From: a virus
Taxonomy: Duplodnaviria > Heunggongvirae > Uroviricota > Caudoviricetes
IMG/VR virus record: IMGVR_UViG_2923302340_000006
Coordinates: 1 to 40,352 of that record
Length of the DNA: 40,352 nucleotides
Direction: 5' to 3' (one strand)
This document shows, one piece after another, positions 2,271 to 40,352 of this stretch (positions within the stretch are counted from its first letter, which is position 1; every line of letters begins with the position of its first letter). The notes under the pieces were generated by a model. That model saw nothing but the letters and a program-made list of their open reading frames with translations, searched no databases and was not told the DNA's origin. Both the position numbers and the translations under genes were made by a program.

Positions 2271-2858
2271 TCAGAAAGGAGGGTAATCGTTCTGGCTGTA
2301 ACCATAATCATCTGCATGATTCTGGCTTACGTTTTTAGAGCGATTGTCTTTATCTTTGAGGCTGGCAACCATGTTGGCGATAGTTTCTGGTTGCTTGCCT
2401 TCCGCCTTTTCTTTAAGGGTTTGACCTGTTTGTGCAATAAACGGGATGCGTATTTCCATCTGGTAGCTGTCTGCGCCAGTCTTTTTGTTTGTGGTTAATA
2501 CTTTCTGGAGCACTAACCCGATTTTCTTTCCATGAAATTCAGGCGCAACAAATTTACTGGCGGAAACCATATGTTGCGTTAATTGTCCAATACCGGCACA
2601 CCCCATCATGGCGTGAACGACATTTGCGCCAAATTTGTTTTCCGTTCCGTCATTTTTCTGAACACAGACGCTAAGATATTGGATTTTACGTCCGTCGTCG
2701 GATTCGCCAGAAAACTCAATAAATTTTGCGCCTTTTTCTGATTGCTTGAGTTCTGCTTCAGTAATGGTAATGATATGAGCGCCAGTTTCGTTAATAAAAC
2801 CACCTTGCCCTGCGGTCAGTGCTGCTTCTTCGTTATAAGTAAAAATCACGTTGCTCAT
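2271..2858 (-). CDS. hypothetical protein, possible ssDNA-binding partner of the Sak4-like ATPase
   Basis: 195-aa ORF; RBS AAGGAAA; start overlaps the stop of the upstream ATPase gene (ATGA); function inferred from position only. Confidence 0.5.
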   Translation of the reverse strand: MSNVIFTYNEEAALTAGQGGFINETGAHIITITEAELKQSEKGAKFIEFSGESDDGRKIQYLSVCVQKNDGTENKFGANVVHAMMGCAGIGQLTQHMVSASKFVAPEFHGKKIGLVLQKVLTTNKKTGADSYQMEIRIPFIAQTGQTLKEKAEGKQPETIANMVASLKDKDNRSKNVSQNHADDYGYSQNDYPPF

Positions 2859-3535
2859 GCTGCGTTTTCCTTAATTTGATGAACATTATTGATGCCGTAG
2901 TAATCACAAACAGTGGCATCGACGAAAGAGAGATCGTTATCAATCTCATTGGAGTCAAACATTCCCATTGGGGATTTAACAGTGTCTGCACCGTTGTTTT
3001 TTGTGGTGAAAAAGAACTGGTCATCACGGGTAAGGGTGCGAAGAACTATAGTAAACATGCCTTCGACAGTGATTTTCTCGTCCAGCATTTTGCCGATAGT
3101 TTTCATTTTCACGCGCCCCATAGGGGTTTCTTCGGTGTGTGCAAGAAAATAGACTCTCAGGTCATCAGGTGCATCCTGTGCAGCCTTAATCACCTCCCAT
3201 GCGTGGCGGCCTATCTCAGTAAATTTATCAAACGATTTTTCTTCTGAGCGGCGCATAAACTCATTGCTCATCACATACTGGAAGTCATCAACAATAACGA
3301 TTCTTTTCCCGTATTCGTGAGCACGCTTAATTACGGCAACTATTACGTCCCATTTGTCAGTGGTAACTACGGTTCCTTTTTTTGCTCTGGCATCCCATGC
3401 AAGCCAGTCTTTTGATTTAAATGGTAGCGGCTTGCCTATTGGTTTTATAAGTATTGCTTCCTCGGGATTGATATTTCTCATGCTGGTTGATTTTCCGGTG
3501 CCAGACTCACCGAGTATTAATGTCGCAGTTCCCAT
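2855..3535 (-). CDS. Sak4-like (AAA_24-type) recombination ATPase
   Basis: 226-aa ORF; N-terminal Walker A LILGESGTGKST; size and early-left position typical of phage Sak4/RecA-core ATPases. Confidence 0.65.
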   Translation of the reverse strand: MGTATLILGESGTGKSTSMRNINPEEAILIKPIGKPLPFKSKDWLAWDARAKKGTVVTTDKWDVIVAVIKRAHEYGKRIVIVDDFQYVMSNEFMRRSEEKSFDKFTEIGRHAWEVIKAAQDAPDDLRVYFLAHTEETPMGRVKMKTIGKMLDEKITVEGMFTIVLRTLTRDDQFFFTTKNNGADTVKSPMGMFDSNEIDNDLSFVDATVCDYYGINNVHQIKENAA

Positions 3536-3744: not shown

Positions 3745-3968
3745 TTTCTGTAGGCTTCGATGGCCTCACGAAACATCTTTTCATCGCCAATAAAAGTGGC
3801 GATAGTGAATTTAGTCTGGATAGCCATAAGTGTTTGATCCATTCTTTGGGACTCCTGGCTGATTAAGTATGTCGATAAGGCGTTTCCATCCGTCACGTAA
3901 TTTACGGGTAATTCGTTCAAGTAAAGATTCGGAAGGGCAGCCAGCAACAGGCCACCCTGCAATGGCAT
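3729..3968 (-). CDS. hypothetical protein
   Basis: 79-aa ORF, overlaps the next gene start. Confidence 0.35.
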   Translation of the reverse strand: MPLQGGLLLAALPNLYLNELPVNYVTDGNALSTYLISQESQRMDQTLMAIQTKFTIATFIGDEKMFREAIEAYRKWRSK

Positions 3969-4047
3969 ATTGCATGGTGTGCTCCTTATTTATACATAAC
4001 GAAAAACGCCTCGAGTGAAGCGTTATTGGTATGCGGTAACGCCGCGT

Positions 4048-6844: not shown

Positions 6845-7597
6845 TTATGCTGCAAGTCTCTTAACCCAAGTCTCTCTTTTGGAGAATGGTAGAACTTGGC
6901 TTGATTCATGGAAGAGTAAGGAGAGTTGTTGCATTTGGTCACCAATTGCTTCGCTGTCTATAACAACAAATCTGTTGTTATACTCCTCACTTGATGCTTT
7001 AAGATCAATTAGTTTCCCAAGCAATGAGTAAGCACTATTCCAGCTTCCTCCGTGTTTCACGCTTGATGTAAAAACGTATTTAGGTATGTCGGTTTTTATT
7101 GTTACAGGGACGGTAATTTGATGTCCACTCAAGCCATATACGTTTTCACGAAGAGAAAGTGCGTCTCTAAGCTCTGTGTGATATAGATAATCAATAACCA
7201 TACTTTCAAACTTTTCAGCTTGAACTGGCTGATACCAGTCTAACGACAAAGTTGATGCGAGTATACCAGCTCTAATTATGTTCGATGTAATCGCACCGAC
7301 ATCCTTTTCTGTTGCCCAAGCAATGATTTCTCCTCGATCATTGAGCTCTGCGCCTTCTTTAAGCAGTAATTGTCGTATCTCATCAAGTCGTTTTTTGGTA
7401 AGCGAGATCCCTCTTGCCTCCATATTCATTAAGGCATCGCATCTATCACTAACTAAATACCTACCATTGACTTCACGGATAAAAGCACCGACATGCTCTC
7501 CATCATCACAGTAAGTGAATGGACTGATAATTCTCAAGGTCTTGCCTATTGGATGGCATTCGAAACCTAGTTGTGAGATCACTGTTGAGCACATCAT
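6845..7597 (-). CDS. unknown protein, distal gene of the cI-adjacent two-gene cassette (rexB position)
   Basis: 250-aa ORF; ATG overlaps the stop of the upstream gene (ATGA); AT-rich; no motif I can assign. Confidence 0.6.
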   Translation of the reverse strand: MMCSTVISQLGFECHPIGKTLRIISPFTYCDDGEHVGAFIREVNGRYLVSDRCDALMNMEARGISLTKKRLDEIRQLLLKEGAELNDRGEIIAWATEKDVGAITSNIIRAGILASTLSLDWYQPVQAEKFESMVIDYLYHTELRDALSLRENVYGLSGHQITVPVTIKTDIPKYVFTSSVKHGGSWNSAYSLLGKLIDLKASSEEYNNRFVVIDSEAIGDQMQQLSLLFHESSQVLPFSKRETWVKRLAA

Positions 7598-8151
7598 ATT
7601 CCAAACCCCATTTGCCCCGACTCATCTTCAAGTGGTAAAGGTATTCTCCCAGAGTAAGTTATGTTCAGATGTTTACAGAAGTAATTCCAATACCCTACCA
7701 GGTCATCTGGGTTTATGTCATCTTCGATTGGAAACGCTATTCTATCACTATAGTATCCAGCTTCTTCATAGTATACATGGTAGTGAGCACCGTAAATGAT
7801 ATCTTGGTACTTCGGATGATCGACCTTGTAACTATTCGTGTGTTTGTCAAAGTGATAGGTATCTACCGCGAAAACCCTCTTGTTATGATAGAAAGCAATA
7901 ATATTTATTTTAGGGTAAGAAATCGGGTCATCAGGTTCTGAATCCTGATCTGGTTTCCATTTCAGTTCAAACTTTAGCCCTTGTATAGGTATACAATCCT
8001 CATCCAAGGGGATGATATGAGCTTGTAGCCACATATCAGAGCGACTTGGTTTCTGTTTCCATTTAACGCCAGAAAAGTTAACTATTTTTTTACAATAAAG
8101 TACTTTATCAACTTCTACTTGGCTTGGCTGATAATCATCTATTTTTGCCAA
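7594..8151 (-). CDS. unknown protein, proximal gene of the cI-adjacent two-gene cassette (rexA position)
   Basis: 185-aa ORF beginning 90 bp downstream of cI on the same strand; apparent TTG start; Asp/Tyr/His-rich; no recognised domain. Confidence 0.55.
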   Translation of the reverse strand: MAKIDDYQPSQVEVDKVLYCKKIVNFSGVKWKQKPSRSDMWLQAHIIPLDEDCIPIQGLKFELKWKPDQDSEPDDPISYPKINIIAFYHNKRVFAVDTYHFDKHTNSYKVDHPKYQDIIYGAHYHVYYEEAGYYSDRIAFPIEDDINPDDLVGYWNYFCKHLNITYSGRIPLPLEDESGQMGFGI

Positions 8152-8241: not shown

Positions 8242-8946
8242 TCACGAACTTTTCAGCCACTCCCTTGCCTCAATGTCATCCAGATGGCGAGATTGCTTCA
8301 GAATACCAGCTACATACTCCACCTTTGCTACTTGATGATAAGGCAACGTTATTGGCCTATGATCCTGGTTGATGCTTGTAAACTGGTATTCTCCGTCTCT
8401 GTCATAGCCAAGAACTTTGATCATGTTGTGTCCTTCAACGGTTCTGACAAACACCTCATCACCCGGGAATACTTTGGTGTTAGGCTCAATGAGTACATAT
8501 TCTCCTGATTTTATTCTAGGCCACATGCTGTCTCCTTTCACACGAAGACCAAAGGCATCTGGATCATCGCTATAAATCTTGAGCCACCCATCGCGCTCTT
8601 CGGTCATCTCGATGGCACCATCAACACCAAGAATTGCCTCACCAACCACGCGCACTAACCCTTTTCTTACCTGACCGACAAAAGTTAAAGAATCTGAGCA
8701 TGATGCAATTGGTGTTACATCATGTACCAAATCAAGCCACCCATTAGGTAACCCAAGTGCGGCTTCGAATTTTCTTGCTAGTTTATCCCCTATGTTTCGA
8801 GTGCTTTTTTCACCGGAGACTTGCGTGAGTTGAGAAGGGCTAACTCCAAGCTTATCGGCAAAGCTTGCATTAGTGTTACCCGCGATTTTTTTATGCTCAT
8901 CTAGCAAAAACGCCAGATTCGATTTGCGAATATCTTTGTTTTCCAT
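8242..8946 (-). CDS. cI: cI-type prophage repressor (HTH + LexA-like S24 autopeptidase domain)
   Basis: 234 aa; N-terminal HTH; C-terminal GDSMWP Ser motif with downstream Lys; divergent from cro. Confidence 0.85.
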   Translation of the reverse strand: MENKDIRKSNLAFLLDEHKKIAGNTNASFADKLGVSPSQLTQVSGEKSTRNIGDKLARKFEAALGLPNGWLDLVHDVTPIASCSDSLTFVGQVRKGLVRVVGEAILGVDGAIEMTEERDGWLKIYSDDPDAFGLRVKGDSMWPRIKSGEYVLIEPNTKVFPGDEVFVRTVEGHNMIKVLGYDRDGEYQFTSINQDHRPITLPYHQVAKVEYVAGILKQSRHLDDIEAREWLKSS

Positions 8947-13391: not shown

Positions 13392-13505
13392 TTGACGCGA
13401 TGATTTATCCGGGGCTATATTCCTCACACGCCAGCAAAATCTGGCGTCGGGATTGGCATCCCGGATAGAAACCGCGACAGATACACGCCGCGAGCGTGTT
13501 TTTTA
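13392..13505 (+). promoter_or_regulatory. candidate promoter + structured leader/sRNA + intrinsic terminator
   Basis: -35 TTGACG (13392..13397), -10 TATATT (13416..13421); hairpins 13430..13445 and 13447..13464; terminator acacgc-cgcga-gcgtgt + T-run (13483..13505). Confidence 0.45.
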
Positions 13506-13665
13506 TTGTCGTATGCACGCGCACATCTGAATTATGGTGGGCTGTGTGGGGGCGGAGAGATCCGCGCCGGTCGGTTTCCCGGTTATGCCAACCCTGCACA
13601 GTTCACCACCAGATGATTGGCATCGTCGGTGGTGGGTTATTTAGAAACCACCAGAGGGCGTCATT

Positions 13666-14349
13666 ATGACAACTCAAATCTCTGTTGAAACTCTCTCCCC
13701 GATCACCCATAACCAGATACCTGTTATTACCACTGAACTTTTGGCGCAGCTTTACGGCACAGAAGCGATTCGCATTCAGCAAAATCACGCCAGAAACGCT
13801 GAACGTTTTATTGAAGGTAAGCATTTTTATAAATTAGTGGGCGATGAGCTTAGAGGTATGAAGCACAGACTATCTTTAAGCGAGTCTGTGAAAATTGCCC
13901 GCAACGTTCGCTCTCTCATCCTCTGGACAGAACGCGGCGCAGCCCGTCACGCCAAAATGCTCGAAACCGATCAGGCGTGGGATGTGTTCGAAAAACTGGA
14001 AGACTGCTATTTCAGGCAGTGCAAGAAAAATACTGGCAAACAAGAGAAGAGCACCAACGAGCTTTCCGCAAAAGAAGCAAACAGCCTTGTATGGTTATGG
14101 GATTATGCCAACCGCTCACAGGCATTATTCCGCGAACTGTATCCGGCATTAAAACAAATTCAATCGAACTATTCCGGCAGATGCTACGACTACGGTCATG
14201 AGTTCTCGTATGTTATTGGAATGGCAAGAGACGTTTTAATAAACCACACACGAGATGTTGATATCAATGAGCCAGACGGACCAACAAATCTTTCCGCATG
14301 GATAAGGCTTAAGAACAAAGAATTACCTCCTTCACTGCATCGCTACTGA
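13666..14349 (+). CDS. antirepressor-like protein (ORF6N-type N-terminal domain + C-terminal domain shared with Ant)
   Basis: 227 aa; N-terminal segment resembles ORF6N domains; C-terminal ~100 aa nearly identical to the C-terminus of the ant product (35542..36420). Confidence 0.7.
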
Positions 14350-14400
14350 CAATTGACAACTTAACAAACCCAGCTTCGGCTGGGTTTTTTATTGCTGAAT
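14038..14400 (+). repeat. direct repeat copy A (~340 bp, ~95% identical to 36112..36445)
   Basis: 3' coding end of the ORF6N-type gene plus its terminator. Confidence 0.85.
14369..14391 (+). terminator. intrinsic terminator
   Basis: cccagc-ttcg-gctggg followed by TTTTTT. Confidence 0.8.
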
Positions 14401-14417
14401 TTTCAATGTGAGAGGAC

Positions 14418-15146
14418 ATGACAATGAATGAGCTGATAAATAACAATGCCATCAAAATGACAAGCATTGAAATCGCTGAGTTGGTGGGAAGCCAACACGG
14501 TAATGTCAGAATATCAATAGAACGTCTGGCAAAGCGTGGGGTGATTCAACTTCCTCCAATGCAAAAAGTTGAAAATAAACAAACAATTAGCCCTAACAAA
14601 TTCACAAGCGTGTATATATTCGAAGGCGAACAAGGTAAGCGCGATAGTATCATTGTCGTCGCCCAGTTGTCGCCAGAGTTCACCGCTCGCCTTGTTGACC
14701 GCTGGCGAGAACTCGAAGGGGCAACCGCGAAAATCCCACAAACCTTCTCTGAAGCATTGCGCCTCGCGGCTGACCTTGAAGACCAGAAGGCTGAACTGGA
14801 GAAACAGCTTGCTCTCGCAGCACCTAAAGTTGATTTTGCCGATCGCGTTGGCGAGGCCAGCGGAATTTTGATTGGAAACTTTGCAAAGGTTGTTGGAATT
14901 GGTCCAAACAAACTGTTTGCGTGGATGCGCGATCACAAAATCCTTATTGCTTCAGGTTCCCGGCGCAATGTGCCAATGCAGGAATATATGGATCGCGGCT
15001 ATTTCACAGTGAAAGAAACAGCGGTCAACACAAATCACGGAATACAGATATCGTTCACCACAAAAATCACCGGGCGTGGTCAACAGTGGCTGACCAGAAA
15101 GCTGCTCGATAACGGAATGCTGAAAGTAACAGGGGAGGCTGCTTAA
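14418..15146 (+). CDS. Rha-family regulator / antirepressor with KilA-C-like C-terminal domain
   Basis: 242 aa; N-terminal Rha-like segment ([14 protein letters not shown]); C-terminal Ant-like domain. Confidence 0.65.
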
Positions 15147-24922: not shown

Positions 24923-26176
24923 ATGGCTAACCAATTAGCAAAAGACCTTGAAATCATGTTCGAAAACTACGTTGAAGGATTTGAGGCCGCCTGCGTAGTT
25001 TCCCGTAACGCTAAAAAATTCCGTCCCGGTGATACAGCAATGCAGCGAGCAGGTGATGTTCTGTATCGTCCGCAGCATTACCACATGAACATTGAGGAAG
25101 GCCTCGACCTCAGCAGCAAAACGCCAACAGCACTGGTTCAGCGCCTTGTTCCTTCTGTGTTCAAGGAGCCGAAAAACATTCTGTACACTCTGGATGCGCG
25201 TGAAATGCGTGACCCGGAACATAAAACTGAAGCTGGTCGCGCCGCAGGTATGCGCCTTGCTGCACAGATTGACTCTGACCTGATTTCCATGGTCACGCAG
25301 CGTGCTACTAACGTGATCACAATGGCTGACTCAACCACTGGTTCACAGGGCCGTGATTTGTGGAACTGTGCGGCAGGTATTGATGCCACCATGACGGCGA
25401 TTGGTGTACCACAGGGTATCAACCGTCGCTCTTTCTGGAACCCCTTCAACTACAAAGACCTTGCTGGCGAGCTTGGTCACCGTGCCTATGCTCAGGGCGC
25501 AACCCTGACAGCATACGAAAAAGCGCAAATCCCTCCGGTTGCGTCCTTTGATAGCTACAAGACCGATATTTCTGGTCGTGTTCCGAAGGGTACAGCAACT
25601 TCCCTGACGCTGGCGGCTGAACCTGCGCACAAGGTTGAAGCGAAAGATGCCAACGATATGCCAGTGGATAACCGACAGGGGACCATTACGGTATCTGCAT
25701 CTGGTTTGCAGGTTGGCGATGCGTTCACCATTGCTGGCGTGAATTCCGTACACCAGATCACCAAAGATACCACCGGGCAGCCGCAGGTATTCCGCGTTCT
25801 GGCAGTAAGCGGAACGACAGTAACTATCTCCCCGAAAATTCTGCCGCCTGACAACGCTGATGTCGCCAGCCGACCATATGCAAACGTTGATGCTAACGCG
25901 GCAAATGGTGCAGCAATTACCATTCTCAACAAAAATGCCGCACCTGCTAACCTGTTCTGGGCTGATGGTTCTGTTGAGCTGATGTACGGCAAACTGGCGT
26001 TCCCGACTGGTCAGGGTCCACAGGTAATGACAGCAACCACCGAGCAGGGCGCTACGCTGATCATGTCTTACGCCTTCGACCACATCAAAGGCGTAACCAC
26101 TGCTCGTTTCACCACTCTGTACGGTTGCTCTGTACTTGTTCCTGAATATACGGGCATCGTTATTGCCGGGCAGTAA
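24923..26176 (+). CDS. major coat protein (P22 gp5-like)
   Basis: 417 aa; conserved blocks resembling P22 coat (YANVDANAANGAAITILNKNAA; NLFWADGS). Confidence 0.85.
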   Translation: MANQLAKDLEIMFENYVEGFEAACVVSRNAKKFRPGDTAMQRAGDVLYRPQHYHMNIEEGLDLSSKTPTALVQRLVPSVFKEPKNILYTLDAREMRDPEHKTEAGRAAGMRLAAQIDSDLISMVTQRATNVITMADSTTGSQGRDLWNCAAGIDATMTAIGVPQGINRRSFWNPFNYKDLAGELGHRAYAQGATLTAYEKAQIPPVASFDSYKTDISGRVPKGTATSLTLAAEPAHKVEAKDANDMPVDNRQGTITVSASGLQVGDAFTIAGVNSVHQITKDTTGQPQVFRVLAVSGTTVTISPKILPPDNADVASRPYANVDANAANGAAITILNKNAAPANLFWADGSVELMYGKLAFPTGQGPQVMTATTEQGATLIMSYAFDHIKGVTTARFTTLYGCSVLVPEYTGIVIAGQ

Positions 26177-26183
26177 TTTGGGT

Positions 26184-26205
26184 GGGGCTTCGGCCCCATT
26201 TTTAT
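26184..26205 (+). terminator. intrinsic terminator after coat gene
   Basis: ggggc-ttcg-gcccc followed by ATTTTTA. Confidence 0.75.
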
Positions 26206-26217
26206 TGGGAGAAGACA

Positions 26218-26406
26218 ATGGCACGAACAATGCTCTATAAGCCGGGCAACATGATCACCTGTGGTCAGGTTGCTGTCGATTACATCATTGTTGATGACGA
26301 AGAAGTTAAATCTCACCTGAAAAAAGGCTGGGTAAAAGCTCCTGAAGAAACCGCAACGAAGCAAAAAGTGGCTAAGGCGGAAGAAGATGGCGAAAACGAA
26401 GGGTGA
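26218..26406 (+). CDS. small hypothetical protein between coat and gp4
   Basis: 62 aa from ATG 26218 (RBS GGGAGAAG). Confidence 0.4.
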   Translation: MARTMLYKPGNMITCGQVAVDYIIVDDEEVKSHLKKGWVKAPEETATKQKVAKAEEDGENEG

Positions 26407-26848
26407 TCTCGTTCTAAAGGCTTTACGAAAAGCCGGGCTGTATTCCAATGCCACGTTGACAGATGCTGACCCTCAGGCAATTGAAGATGCCATTAATGAC
26501 CTCGAAGACATGATGGCAGCATGGCAGGCTAAAGGTATCGAGCTTGGATATCAGTTTGCGGATACAGAAAACGGCATCATGCCGTTACCTGACGATGATT
26601 CAGGTATCCCTGCATGGGCAAATGATGGCGTCGCTTTGAAGCTCGCTGTGCAAGTGTGCATGGATAACGTCATTCAGCCGTCGGATGCTCTCCTGACCGC
26701 TGCTGACAGTGCATATCAGACAATCTGTATCGCTTTAACCAAAATACCACCACTTGAGCGACGAAATGATATGCCTCGCGGTAGTGGTAACAAAAGCGCG
26801 TTTACGTGGAATCGGTTTTACATCGAGAAAGATGATCCGAGTACGTGA
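26387..26848 (+). CDS. head completion protein (P22 gp4-like)
   Basis: 153 aa; N-terminus KTKGDLV..LRK.G..S.ATLTD..PQ...DA..DLE.MMA.W resembles P22 gp4. Confidence 0.75.
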   Translation: MAKTKGDLVLKALRKAGLYSNATLTDADPQAIEDAINDLEDMMAAWQAKGIELGYQFADTENGIMPLPDDDSGIPAWANDGVALKLAVQVCMDNVIQPSDALLTAADSAYQTICIALTKIPPLERRNDMPRGSGNKSAFTWNRFYIEKDDPST

Positions 26849-26857
26849 GGTGAATAA

Positions 26858-28276
26858 ATGCCGATTCAGCAACTTCCACTCATGAAAGGCGTCGGCAAAG
26901 ACTTTCGAAACGCCGACTATATCGACTATCTGCCAGTGAATATGCTGGCTACACCCAAAGAAATCCTGAACAGCAGCGGATATCTTCGCTCATTCCCGGG
27001 CATTGCCAAACGTTCTGATGTGAACGGTATATCGCGCGGCGTCGAGTACAACATGGCGCAGAGTGCTGTTTATCGCGTGTGTGGTGGCAAGCTGTATAAG
27101 GGCGAAAGTGAAGTCGGTGATGTTGCCGGAAGTGGTCGTGTATCAATGGCGCATGGTCGGACATCTCAGGCTGTAGGCGTTAATGGTCAACTGGTCGAGT
27201 ATCGCTATGATGGCACGGTTAAAACCGTCTCAAACTGGCCTACAGACAGCGGATTCACTCAGTATGAGTTAGGTTCAGTCCGCGACATTACACGCTTACG
27301 TGGGCGTTATGCGTGGTCAAAAGACGGCACGGATTCATGGTTTATCACTGACCTTGAAGACGAATCGCATCCTGACCGTTACAGCGCACAATATCGTGCC
27401 GAGTCGCAGCCTGACGGCATCATCGGAATCGGAACATGGCGAGACTTCATCGTCTGCTTTGGTTCATCGACGATTGAATATTTCTCCCTGACTGGTGCAA
27501 CCACAGTTGGTGCTGCTTTGTATGTCGCACAGCCATCGCTGATGGTGCAAAAAGGCATCGCCGGGACTTACTGCAAAACGCCGTTTGCTGATTCCTATGC
27601 GTTTATCAGCAATCCGGCAACAGGTGCGCCGTCTGTATACATCATCGGCTCCGGTCAGGTGTCACCAATCGCCAGCGCGAGCATTGAGAAAATCCTCCGC
27701 TCCTACACTGCTGATGAACTGGCTGATGGCGTGATGGAATCGTTGCGCTTTGATGCGCATGAGTTGCTGATTATCCATCTTCCGCGCCACGTACTCGTGT
27801 ACGACGCATCTTCAAGCGCCAATGGTCCGCAATGGTGTGTGTTGAAAACAGGCCTGTATGACGATGTGTACCGCGCTATCGACTTCATTTACGAAGGCAA
27901 TCAGATAACGTGCGGCGATAAGCTGGAATCTGTTACCGGGAAACTGCAGTTCGATATCAGCAGCCAGTACGACAAGCAACAGGAACACCTGCTGTTTACT
28001 CCACTCTTCAAAGCAGATAACGCCAGAGTTTTCGACCTTGAGGTTGAATCGTCAACTGGCGTTGCGCAGTACGCCGACCGCCTTTTTCTCTCTGCAACCA
28101 CTGACGGCATCAATTACGGGCGTGAGCAGATGATTGAGCAGAATGAACCGTTCGTTTATGACAAACGTGTTTTGTGGAAGCGAGTCGGGCGCATCAGGAA
28201 AAATGTCGGCTTCAAATTGCGCGTTATCACGAAGTCACCTGCCACTCTGTCAGGCTGCCAGATAAGGATTGAGTAA
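26858..28276 (+). CDS. head completion / DNA stabilisation protein (P22 gp10-like)
   Basis: 472 aa; near-identical to P22 gp10 as I recall it ([11 protein letters not shown]...). Confidence 0.9.
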
Positions 28277-29229
28277 TGGCTGATTCGAATCTCAATGAGC
28301 CGGTAATCATTCAGGCTACACGACTCGACACATCAGTCCTTCCACGCAATATCTTCTCGCAGTCATATCTGTTGTACGTTATCGCACAGGGTGCTGATGT
28401 TGGTAACGTGGCTAACAAGGCCAACGAAGCAGGGAAGGGGGCTTATGATGCACAGGTGAAGAATGATGAGCAGGATGTCACCCTTGCAGACCATGAATCC
28501 AGAATTGAAGCTGCTGAAGCAACTCTCATCAATCATGAACATAGAATTGCAGCAGCGGAAAGCACTTTTGCAGAACATGAAACAAGGATTACGGCTGCTG
28601 AAACAGAGCTGGCTGATCACGAGACGCGAATTGCTGCCAATGAATCTGAGTTAGCAAACCATGATGCGCGCATAACTCAGAATACAACCGATATCGACGC
28701 ACTTGATACCAGGCTCACAGCGGCAGAGGGAAGTATTTCGACGCTACAAAGCACAGTTGGTGACCACTCAACAAGAATATCTGCGCTTGAGTATGCCACC
28801 ACGCGCAAGAAATCAGAGGTTGTTTACTCAGGAGTATCTGTAACCATCCCGACAGCGCCGACCAACCTTGTTAGCCTGCTGAAAACGCTCACGCCGTCAT
28901 CCGGCACATTGGCACCATTCTTCGACACCGTTAACAACAAGATGGTTGTGTTCAACGAGAACAAAACCCTGTTCTTCAAGCTGTCGATCGTCGGGACGTG
29001 GCCCAGCGGAACCGCCAACAGGTCAATGCAGCTAACCTTTTCCGGCTCTGTTCCTGACACGTTGGTCAGCAGTCGTAATGCGGCGACAACAACCGACAAC
29101 ATCCTGTTAGCTACGTTCTTCAGCGTGGATAAAGACGGCTTTCTTGCCACAAATGGCAGCACGTTAACCATTCAGTCAAATGGTGCGGCGTTTACTGCCA
29201 CAACCATCAAGATAATCGCGGAGCAGTGA
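28276..29229 (+). CDS. tail needle protein (P22 gp26-like) with extra C-terminal knob domain
   Basis: 317 aa; N-terminus [18 protein letters not shown]... as in P22 gp26; repeats in the central coiled coil; ~130-aa C-terminal domain not in P22. Confidence 0.85.
28485..28680 (+). repeat. five imperfect 42-bp tandem repeats encoding 14-aa coiled-coil units of the tail needle
   Basis: Units [14 protein letters not shown] / [14 protein letters not shown] / [14 protein letters not shown] / [14 protein letters not shown] / [14 protein letters not shown]. Confidence 0.7.
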
Positions 29230-39185: not shown

Positions 39186-40352
39186 TTGAAACGCCGTCTT
39201 ATTATTGCTGCTTCTTTGTTCGTTTTTAACTTATCGTCTGGTTTTGCGGCGGAAAACATTCCTTTTTCACCTCAGCCTCCAGAGATTCATGCCGGGTCCT
39301 GGGTATTGATGGATTACACCACCGGACAGATCCTCACCGCGGGTAATGAGCATCAACAGCGCAATCCCGCCAGCCTGACAAAGCTGATGACGGGCTATGT
39401 CGTGGATCGCGCTATCGATAGTCATCGCATTACGCCAGACGATATTGTCACCGTGGGGCGCGATGCGTGGGCGAAAGATAATCCAGTGTTTGTCGGTTCT
39501 TCACTGATGTTTTTGAAAGAGGGCGATCGCGTATCGGTACGTGATTTAAGCCGTGGTTTAATTGTGGATTCCGGAAATGACGCTTGTGTTGCTCTGGCTG
39601 ACTATATTGCCAGTGGGCAACGGCAGTTTGTTGAAATGATGAACAACTATGCCGAGAAGCTGCATCTCAAGGATACGCATTTTGAAACAGTGCATGGTCT
39701 GGATGCACCTGGCCAGCATAGCTCGGCTTATGATTTAGCCGTGCTTTCTCGCGCTATCATCCACGGCGAGCCCGAGTTTTATCATATGTACAGTGAGAAA
39801 AGCCTCACCTGGAACGGTATCACCCAGCAAAACCGTAACGGGTTATTGTGGGATAAGACCATGAATGTTGACGGCCTGAAAACGGGTCATACTTCTGGTG
39901 CCGGGTTTAATCTTATTGCTTCGGCTGTAGACGGGCAGCGTCGCCTCATTGCAGTGGTAATGGGTGCTGACAGCGCAAAAGGTCGTGAGGAAGAGGCAAG
40001 AAAATTACTGCGTTGGGGGCAACAAAACTTTACTACGGTGCAAATTTTGCACCGTGGGAAAAAGGTCGGTACGGAACGCATCTGGTATGGCGATAAAGAA
40101 AATATCGCCCTGGGAACGGTACAAGAGTTCTGGATGGTGCTACCGAAAGCCGAAATTCCACATATCAAAGCCAAATATACCCTTGATGGTAAAGAGCTCA
40201 CCGCGCCAATTAGCGCCCATCAGCGGGTAGGGGAAATTGAACTTTACGACCGTGATAAACAGGTGGCGCACTGGCCGCTGGTTACCCTGGAATCTGTCGG
40301 GGAAGGCAGCATGTTTTCTCGCCTGAGTGATTATTTCCACCATAAGGCCTGA
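39186..40352 (+). CDS. dacD: D-alanyl-D-alanine carboxypeptidase DacD (PBP6b), host gene
   Basis: Signal peptide, S11 motifs SLTK, SGN, KTGHT; matches E. coli DacD from memory; likely TTG start at 39186 (ORF opens at 39180). Confidence 0.95.
   Translation: MKRRLIIAASLFVFNLSSGFAAENIPFSPQPPEIHAGSWVLMDYTTGQILTAGNEHQQRNPASLTKLMTGYVVDRAIDSHRITPDDIVTVGRDAWAKDNPVFVGSSLMFLKEGDRVSVRDLSRGLIVDSGNDACVALADYIASGQRQFVEMMNNYAEKLHLKDTHFETVHGLDAPGQHSSAYDLAVLSRAIIHGEPEFYHMYSEKSLTWNGITQQNRNGLLWDKTMNVDGLKTGHTSGAGFNLIASAVDGQRRLIAVVMGADSAKGREEEARKLLRWGQQNFTTVQILHRGKKVGTERIWYGDKENIALGTVQEFWMVLPKAEIPHIKAKYTLDGKELTAPISAHQRVGEIELYDRDKQVAHWPLVTLESVGEGSMFSRLSDYFHHKA

Follow-up and report, generated by a model that had tools for sequence, protein, structure and literature searches.

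The window analysed here, the whole 40,352 nucleotides (nt) of IMG/VR record IMGVR_UViG_2923302340_000006, reads as a P22-like prophage at the sbcB-dacD site of Escherichia coli, and it carries two antirepressor genes that end in nearly the same DNA: gene A in the nin region (13666–14349, + strand) and ant before the tailspike gene (35542–36420, +). The DNA shared by their 3' ends, referred to below as the cassette (copy A in gene A, copy B in ant), codes for the P22_AR_C domain and runs on into a terminator. The two copies are very probably old paralogues from two lineages, each tied to its own locus, that came together as phage arms were combined in the usual mosaic way, rather than the products of a recent duplication or conversion.

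The shared 3' cassette and its lineages

The repeat was examined by MAFFT pairwise alignment, by a repeat finder and by an ungapped register comparison at a fixed offset of 22,071 nt, and the three are concordant. In the register comparison, 14035–14334 and 36106–36405 are identical at 289/300 positions (96.3%); the 315-nt coding part of copy A (14035–14349, +, residues 124–227 plus the stop codon) is 95.2% identical to that of copy B (36106–36420, +), and the stretch 14032–14349, up to the stop codon, 94.7%. Both copies lie in the same reading frame on the + strand and share perfect tracts of 85, 68 and 47 nt, while the 100 nt flanking the repeat on each side are 21–23% identical, the random level; the repeat finder returned no other direct repeat of at least 40 nt in the 40-kb window. 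Beyond the stop codon the copies part and meet again: 14350–14372, which holds a diverged 18-nt spacer (14350–14367 in copy A), is identical at 12/23 positions, whereas a 23-nt perfect tract at 14368–14390 spans the terminator hairpin CCCAGCTTCGGCTGGGTTTTTT (also CCCAGCTTCGGCTGGG, then a T run). The terminator-like sites at 14366–14387 and 36438–36457 fold with -15.1 and -14.5 kcal/mol, and with their T runs they take up 14366–14393 (+; folding z = -4.2) in copy A and 36438–36464 (+), the t_ant position upstream of the tailspike gene, in copy B.

A sequence-only reading had described this as a repeat of about 95% DNA identity, shared at 14038–14400 and 36112–36445 by two antirepressor-like genes with unrelated N-terminal domains. 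The repeat is real, and the alignment of both intervals gives contiguous high identity, not short scattered matches; the N-terminal domains do belong to different Pfam families, ORF6N in gene A and Bro-N in ant. The identity figure holds for the coding part (94.7–96.3%) but not for the whole of 14038–14400, where it falls to 91.5% because the spacer past the stop codon has diverged. The second interval marks the right region but is about 29 nt too short and cuts through the terminator, the homologous interval of copy B being 36106–36471.

The cassette is widely distributed. As a 366-nt query it found 239 phage records (19 at 95–99% identity, 43 at 90–95% and 177 at 80–90%), an exact 32-mer of it occurs in more than 118 IMG/VR contigs, and its DNA identity among enterobacterial lambdoid phages is 86–99%. 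Sorting 119 copies by their flanks placed eight between an upstream ORF6N part and a downstream roi gene, 52 between upstream DNA like that of the window's ant and a tailspike gene, and 38 between another N-terminal part and a tailspike gene, with the remainder in other contexts. An architecture census covered 100 proteins, the two of the window and 98 distinct full-length proteins from open reading frames (ORFs) extracted at cassette loci: P22_AR_C (PF10548, cut-off 22.4 bits; 103 bits in gene A and 97.9 in ant) was present in 99 of them, and the N-termini fell to P22_AR_N (63), Bro-N (22), KilA-N (8) and ORF6N (5). A sharp 5' boundary, GGCAAACAAGAG, is common to all cassette lineages. The mobile unit would be made up of the coding part of P22_AR_C (about 312 bp), a short spacer that depends on the locus, and a single intrinsic terminator that is conserved; by recombination at the sharp boundary it would have acquired N-terminal domains of four or more unrelated families.

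Three genomic homes can be told apart: the nin region, the position before the tailspike gene, and a third between tail genes L and K of siphophages that carry Shiga toxin (Stx). The third is an antirepressor-like moron represented by gp70 of phage 1717 (locus L126, 32228–33151) and ten IMG/VR contigs (L131, L132, L135–L142); its spacer is of a separate type (CAGATTGCC...), and no fewer than two distinct upstream parts meet the cassette there at the common boundary. The terminator hairpin is invariant in four genomic contexts, and each home has a spacer of its own past the stop codon. The essential point, that the C-terminus of Ant is shared across an Stx phage and P22, is already in the literature, Ant of Phi24B and Ant of P22 being 82% identical over their last 104 residues against 37% overall (PMC3064807), and the finding is one of ordinary, already-described phage mosaicism. 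What is new here is that gene A is recognised as a module of the isrK-orf45-anrP type whose C-terminus has been swapped, that the cassette is resolved into lineages, and that a crossover is mapped in E. coli 2013C-3250.

The lineage structure is read from ten sites (14051, 14052, 14067, 14304, 14307, 14316, 14335, 14337, 14341 and 14342) at which, in about 100 independent copies, nin-region and tailspike-side alleles differ with no or almost no exception. Copy A carries the nin alleles at 10/10 of these and copy B the tailspike-side alleles at 10/10. The nearest relatives of copy A are nin-region copies in other genomes, at 99.4% and 99.0%; the pair within the window, at 96.3%, is not closer than these orthologues, as concerted evolution would make it. 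Over 104 codons the two copies are separated by eight synonymous and seven non-synonymous changes, which leave 99/104 residues identical and correspond to a synonymous divergence (dS) of 0.133 and a non-synonymous divergence (dN) of 0.029, a ratio of 0.22. A second genome with two direct copies, the Stx2 phage 1717, has them about 28.6 kb apart, the second between tail genes L and K, and there they are far less alike than the window pair: the nin copy, of the VT2-Sakai/Nil2 class, is 85.8% identical to copy A and stands much further off than the three other sequences in the alignment. That the copies of phage 1717 are so diverged argues that there is no general homogenisation within genomes.

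The presence of two copies in one genome follows from how this genome appears to be put together, as a mosaic in which a late arm of P22 type is combined with a nin region like that of Stx phages. Its late half is most like the E. coli phages Kapi1, phiv205-1, CUS-3 and E212, and the nin region around gene A is most like Stx-converting phages.

Crossover within the cassette

Among 5,426 complete E. coli genomes, one, that of O111 strain 2013C-3250 (NZ_CP027380.1), has NinE followed directly by an ORF6N::P22AR_C gene and this in turn by a tailspike gene (hybrid prophage loci L001, 20433–21137 and ~21000–40752, and L145, 30054–32856). The locus is an Stx1a prophage next to ssrA, and other O111:H8 strains with the same prophage at the same site have the order NinE-ORF6N/P22AR_C-roi-NinG-NinH-Q-stx1. 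O111 strain 11128 has a P22-like prophage at sbcB-dacD that agrees with the tailspike side at 99.85% over 4 kb and encodes an identical tailspike protein. Along the junction gene, all 7/7 informative sites up to gene position 561 agree with the Stx1-prophage parent and all 38/38 from position 588 with the P22-like parent, no site matching neither; the crossover interval is 26 nt, equivalent to 14206–14231 of the window, in a segment that differs by about 6% between the parents. The junction is a clean single crossover in a diverged segment, and work in lambda has shown that diverged repeats in a phage genome can recombine efficiently (PMC2327257).

The second boundary of the acquired patch, about 19.7 kb long, lies within ninH, and the patch holds the 3' half of ant, the tailspike and acyltransferase genes, the att region, the left arm, the immunity region, the replication genes and nin genes. 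The sbcB-dacD site of 2013C-3250 is empty. As more than 30 genomes have the unrecombined Stx1-prophage gene and one has the junction, the junction is the derived state. The prophage of 11128 was considered as the exact donor and ruled out by its left arm, which differs (exo/bet/gam against ERF), so that the donor would be a relative of it. On the simplest reading, two exchanges, one in the cassette and one in ninH, brought a circular P22-like genome into the resident Stx1 prophage, and its late genes were lost. The junction thus seems to have arisen between two different prophages and not by simple deletion, and recombination inside the module appears to have occurred in nature, documented this once, between prophages. 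A crossover of this kind can bring some 20 kb from another prophage into one that carries Shiga toxin, the cassette linking the Stx and P22-like prophages of pathogenic E. coli, and the case bears on how the regulation and immunity region of Stx phages is rearranged.

Recombination between the two copies of one prophage had also been predicted from the window alone, with deletion of the whole late and virion block as its outcome. Since the two copies point the same way, share a reading frame and stand 22,071 nt apart, a crossover would remove 22,071 bp wherever it fell (approximately 14350–36105), and with it roi, ninG, ninH, the phosphatase gene, Q, the lysis, terminase, portal, coat and ejection-protein genes, the P63C-domain gene, mnt, arc, sar and the Bro-N part of ant. 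As direct repeats with long perfect tracts they offer a substrate for recombination; the minimal processing segment for homologous recombination is about 25 bp, and the tracts of 85, 68 and 47 nt, all in the same orientation, exceed it. What is left would be a prophage that lacks Q and the lysis and virion genes, in which isrK controls an in-frame ORF6N::P22AR_C gene and the B-type terminator and then the tailspike gene come next; host RecA or the phage's Sak4, NinB and NinG functions would be the agents.

In this prediction the direct-repeat geometry stands, with the gene loss as its expected consequence, and the product itself was not encountered: when the predicted junction sequence was built and the 5,426 complete E. 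coli genomes were scanned with it, no intra-prophage deletion of this kind was found (0/5,426), only the crossover between prophages. An apparent abundance of P22-like prophages with two copies was set aside, three that were inspected having no nin-region copy but a single ant module that had aligned to both parts of the query.

For lambda repeats of about 800 bp that were 4% diverged, recombination reached about 4e-4 with RecABCD and about 1e-3 with Red per single-step growth (Martinsohn, Radman and Petit 2008, PMC2327257), and a 1000-fold drop at 4% divergence in the E. coli chromosome is among the values cited there. By inference from those lambda rates, junction molecules are expected to be detectable in lytic growth and would be much rarer in the quiescent prophage. 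The likeness lies in diverged repeats of a few hundred bp that recombine efficiently in phage genomes; the lambda system differs in that it scored inversion between engineered repeats, and the recombinase of the window is Sak4-like, not Red. The spontaneous decay of a P22-like prophage to a defective remnant, still immunity-proficient and with the tailspike gene retained, would leave a concrete, testable junction.

Alternative readings of the repeat

With half a P22-like prophage inside an Stx1 prophage, 2013C-3250 suggests that the cassette could be a preferred crossover point at which unrelated lambdoid phages (P22-like podoviruses, Stx siphoviruses and podoviruses, Gifsy-type phages) swap antirepressor sensor domains and genome halves. 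We regard this as rather unlikely; if it were true, a lysogen with at least two copies, in one or several prophages, would have its prophages rearranged or disabled often enough for the rate to be measured.

It is also unlikely that the cassette is selected as a recombination linker or boundary, its DNA conserved and its terminator kept because frequent crossovers there allow lambdoid phages to exchange antirepressor heads and whole genome arms. The sharp 5' boundary, found in every lineage and across four N-terminal families in three genomic homes, is what such a linker might look like, as is a terminator that is invariant next to a variable spacer; a "boundary sequence" is annotated at ant in the CUS-3 record, haplotypes at loci L101, L022, L024 and L119 look recombinant, and the crossover of an Stx1 prophage with a P22-like phage falls within the module. 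Against this, a dN/dS of 0.22 together with 99/104 identical residues speaks for ordinary purifying selection on the protein, a dS of 0.13 is not unusually low for modules shared among lambdoid phages, one clear crossover was seen in 5,426 genomes, and any shared sequence acts as a crossover site without being selected to do so. Twelve IMG/VR contigs with A-type 5' and B-type 3' alleles had been taken for recombinants, but all ten that were examined lie among Stx tail genes and form the third stable lineage, so that they are no evidence of recombination; the reciprocal combination, B-type 5' with A-type 3' alleles, had no match in IMG/VR.

A recent conversion within the genome, or a duplication of the 3' end, that homogenised both genes in this prophage lineage is quite improbable, and as an event covering the whole tract it is largely refuted. 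Unrelated pairs of one nin and one tailspike-side copy are on average 93.4% identical (standard deviation 2.1), so the window pair at 96.3% stands in the top 3–5% of such comparisons; the central 236 nt of the cassette are without locus-fixed differences; and tailspike-side copies resemble the window-type nin lineage (the window, L050 and L004) more than they do the Stx-phage nin lineage. These are the patterns that conversion could explain. A recent event is, however, hard to square with 15 nucleotide differences over 104 codons and a dS of 0.133, with own-locus alleles at every diagnostic site in both copies, or with the closer kinship of copy A to nin-region copies of other genomes. Unrelated pairs reach 97.0%, and among 90 tailspike-side copies from other genomes, four are as similar to copy A as the resident copy B is, or more so. 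Moreover, the differences at 14217 and 14286 are alleles found in 2/7 other nin-region copies and absent from copy B, and the spacers past the stop codons are locus-specific. The sequence-only reading had proposed "recent domain shuffling or gene conversion": shuffling is borne out by the different N-terminal families on a shared tail, whereas neither the recency nor the conversion finds support in the dS and the retained locus alleles, and comparison with related prophages makes the shuffling old and population-wide.

That the repeat is an artefact of assembly, from a collapsed or chimeric contig, or a chance or convergent similarity is hardly credible: the source, GCA_012780495.1, is indeed a draft assembly with a 77.7-kb contig, and repeats of about 300 bp can mislead short-read assemblers, but the copies differ at 11/300 positions and in their spacers and so are not a duplicated pile of reads, the NinE-gene A-roi context is intact in Stx phages and in three other contigs with an identical protein, as is arc-ant-tailspike in P22-like phages, and 96% over 300 nt between flanks at random level, with a conserved non-coding terminator besides, is not what chance would leave.

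What the shared domain does can be offered as a best guess of low confidence: P22_AR_C may be a small helical part, predicted to serve protein interaction or oligomerisation in common, while the N-terminal domains supply specificity. Searches of the PDB gave no relevant sequence relative of P22_AR_C, and NCBIfam holds no family for it. Two antirepressors under two RNA switches with one C-terminal domain in common offer a natural system in which to probe its role.

Several observations weigh against this picture of old, locus-specific lineages built on a mobile cassette. With the high rank of the window pair and no locus-fixed differences in the central 236 nt, some old exchange may have taken place in that central part. 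The AlphaFold model of the domain, from a shallow alignment, has three helices at moderate confidence (predicted local distance difference test score, pLDDT, of 76), and a Foldseek comparison of it with the PDB gave no informative fold match (best E = 3.3). AnrP of the Salmonella prophage Gifsy-1 induces its prophage without P22_AR_C (PMC4825925 and sequence comparison), so the domain is not the sole way to build such a protein. The junction of 2013C-3250 is known from one public assembly as deposited. Finally, no deletion product of any two-copy P22-like prophage appeared in the 5,426 E. coli genomes or in IMG/VR, an absence that is weakly informative because the number of such two-copy prophages is unmeasured.

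The two antirepressor modules and the prophage around them

Gene A encodes 227 residues in which an AnrP-type ORF6N domain (74 bits in Pfam) is fused to P22_AR_C, and the region before it appears to follow the isrK-orf45-anrP arrangement of Gifsy-1, with the C-terminus of the protein swapped. All the elements fit into the 280 nt between ninE and gene A, on the + strand: a putative sigma-70-like promoter, TTGACG-18-TATATT (13392–13421), which matches the consensus and is conserved in the isrK region of Gifsy-1; an isrK-like small RNA (13428–13504; full-length match to Rfam RF01394 at 80 bits, gathering score 50) with its own terminator at 13483–13499 and a T run; a match to the C4 target sites a1/b1 that overlaps this RNA (13415–13467; RF03163, 52.4 bits); an orf45-like leader ORF (13514–13669), read from the sequence and its likeness to Gifsy-1, with in-frame ATGs at 13514 and 13535; and, overlapping the leader, an Rfam match to the C4 antisense RNA of P1/P7 type (13530–13613). 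The stop of the leader overlaps the start of gene A in an ATGA at 13666–13669, by which translation of the two may be coupled, as in the Gifsy-1 module. The isrK region of Gifsy-1 aligns to that of the window at 89% mean column identity.

Against STM2616/AnrP, taken from the Gifsy-1 record, gene A is 66% identical over 127 aligned residues (1–126), and no similarity is found further on. The likeness ends about where the cassette starts, the C-terminus of AnrP being unrelated to P22_AR_C, and gene A does not match full-length AnrP, since P22_AR_C replaces the C-terminus from about residue 124. In Gifsy-1, IsrK, made from a promoter of its own and with a leaky terminator before the operon, activates translation of the antirepressor-like AnrP, whose expression induces the prophage (Hershko-Shalev et al. 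2016, PMC4825925), and the two regions share promoter, IsrK RNA, two-AUG leader, AUGA overlap and ORF6N protein. They differ in what lies beyond: Gifsy-1 has isrJ downstream of anrP, and isrJ gave no match at E up to 10 in 14200–14450 or 36270–36530, the stretches around the two cassette ends; the module of Gifsy-1 lies next to Q, that of the window between ninE and roi. At the shared terminator, Rfam families gave sub-threshold noise only. As a complete leader of the Gifsy-1 isrK-orf45 type lies upstream, the nin-region antirepressor is probably under translational control by a small RNA. Flanked by a consensus-level promoter and a terminator, gene A may be a moron, an independently expressed insert, composed here of the promoter, an isrK/C4-type RNA, the orf45-like leader and the AnrP-type ORF6N gene, and the immI region may be a second, independent antirepressor moron.

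The nin-region module has further counterparts in the antA/antB-roi genes of the Stx phages 2851 and Nil2 and in ant of Phi24B (Fogg et al. 2011, PMC3064807), which share the order NinE-ant-roi-NinG and, with P22 Ant, the same C-terminal 104 residues; DNA identity to the window in this region is 92–95%. For the ant knockout of Phi24B, the authors propose that efficient prophage induction is impaired (PMC3064807). Unlike in these Stx phages, the module of the window sits in a P22-like (podovirus-type) prophage that also holds the ant gene of immI, with copies 96% identical. Directly downstream of copy A is a Roi-like gene with Rha and KilAC domains (14418–15146, +; Pfam ANT/KilAC 113.8 bits, Phage_pRha 26.4 bits), whose counterparts in Stx phages are annotated roi; it would be the first gene to go in the predicted deletion.

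The identical 227-residue protein of gene A was seen in two other prophages (L127, GCA_038076995.1, and L128, GCA_958335485.1) among different neighbours, with YbcO-RusA in place of NinG and with a P22-type portal in one and a Phage_portal_3/Mu_F-like head module in the other. These contexts point to a nin-region module that moves freely between prophages.

Copy B appears to belong to a classical immI region, in the order mnt, arc, sar, ant, terminator and tailspike gene. It has an Arc-family repressor gene like mnt (34978–35217, -; Pfam Arc 48.8 bits), an arc gene (35291–35479, +; 46.8 bits) and, opposite the translation start region of ant, the antisense RNA sar (35474–35540, -; full-length match to RF00262 at 70.1 bits, gathering score 43), with a promoter-like site at 35576–35548 and a terminator-like site at 35509–35478, both on the minus strand. 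The 292 residues of Ant comprise Bro-N (71.8 bits), a middle region common to other tailspike-side Ant proteins, which was identified against a consensus of 100 homologues, and P22_AR_C. The promoter and terminator layout of ant is presumably the known P_ant/t_ant.

The region before the tailspike gene has been termed the "ant moron", with high genetic flux (Villafane et al. 2008, PMC2629481), and the window agrees with P22 immI in that the region follows the gene 16 homologue and precedes the tailspike gene, in the divergent Arc-family repressor genes upstream of ant, in its sar match (70 bits), in an Ant that ends in P22_AR_C and in the terminator before the tailspike gene. It differs from P22 in that its Ant has, by Pfam, no P22_AR_N but Bro-N in that place, and in having a P63C-domain gene upstream of the Mnt-like gene. 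As cited in PMC3121763, P22 Ant inactivates several repressors; binding and inactivation of the C2-type repressor are known for P22 Ant only. The one prophage would thus hold two antirepressor modules under different RNA switches, isrK/C4-type and sar.

The window's assignment to the P22-like prophages draws on its P22-type portal, coat, gp16-family ejection protein and tailspike with a P22 head-binding domain, and its last ORF is host dacD (39180–40352, +). It also encodes NinB, NinE, NinG, NinH, a phosphatase, Q, Abc2, a LexA-like repressor (8242–8946) and a Sak4-like AAA_24 protein (2855–3535). From 25542 to 40352 it is 100% identical to contig DABDNB010000017.1 of GCA_012780495.1, and the block 36088–36861 is 94–96% conserved in other E. 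coli P22-like phages. The tailspike gene (36521–38593, +) has a Head_binding match of 224 bits and a pectate-lyase-like match at residues 156–193.

Some other features of the prophage may be recorded. The P63C-domain protein of the "ant moron", 347 residues long and encoded at 33919–34962 (+) just upstream of the Mnt-like gene, also has its gene in a related prophage of pig E. coli (L124); we take P22 sieA to lie about where this gene sits. The RNA thermoregulator element of lambda cIII has a full-length Rfam match of 88.5 bits at 3930–3988 (-). Two genes at 6845–7597 (-) and 7594–8151 (-), with the Pfam domains DUF1828 and DUF6978, adjoin the gene of the LexA-like repressor, a position beside the repressor in which lambdoid phages often carry exclusion genes, and the pair matches the PADLOC candidate defence families PDC-M24B (E = 4e-10) and, weakly, PDC-M24A (E = 5e-4).

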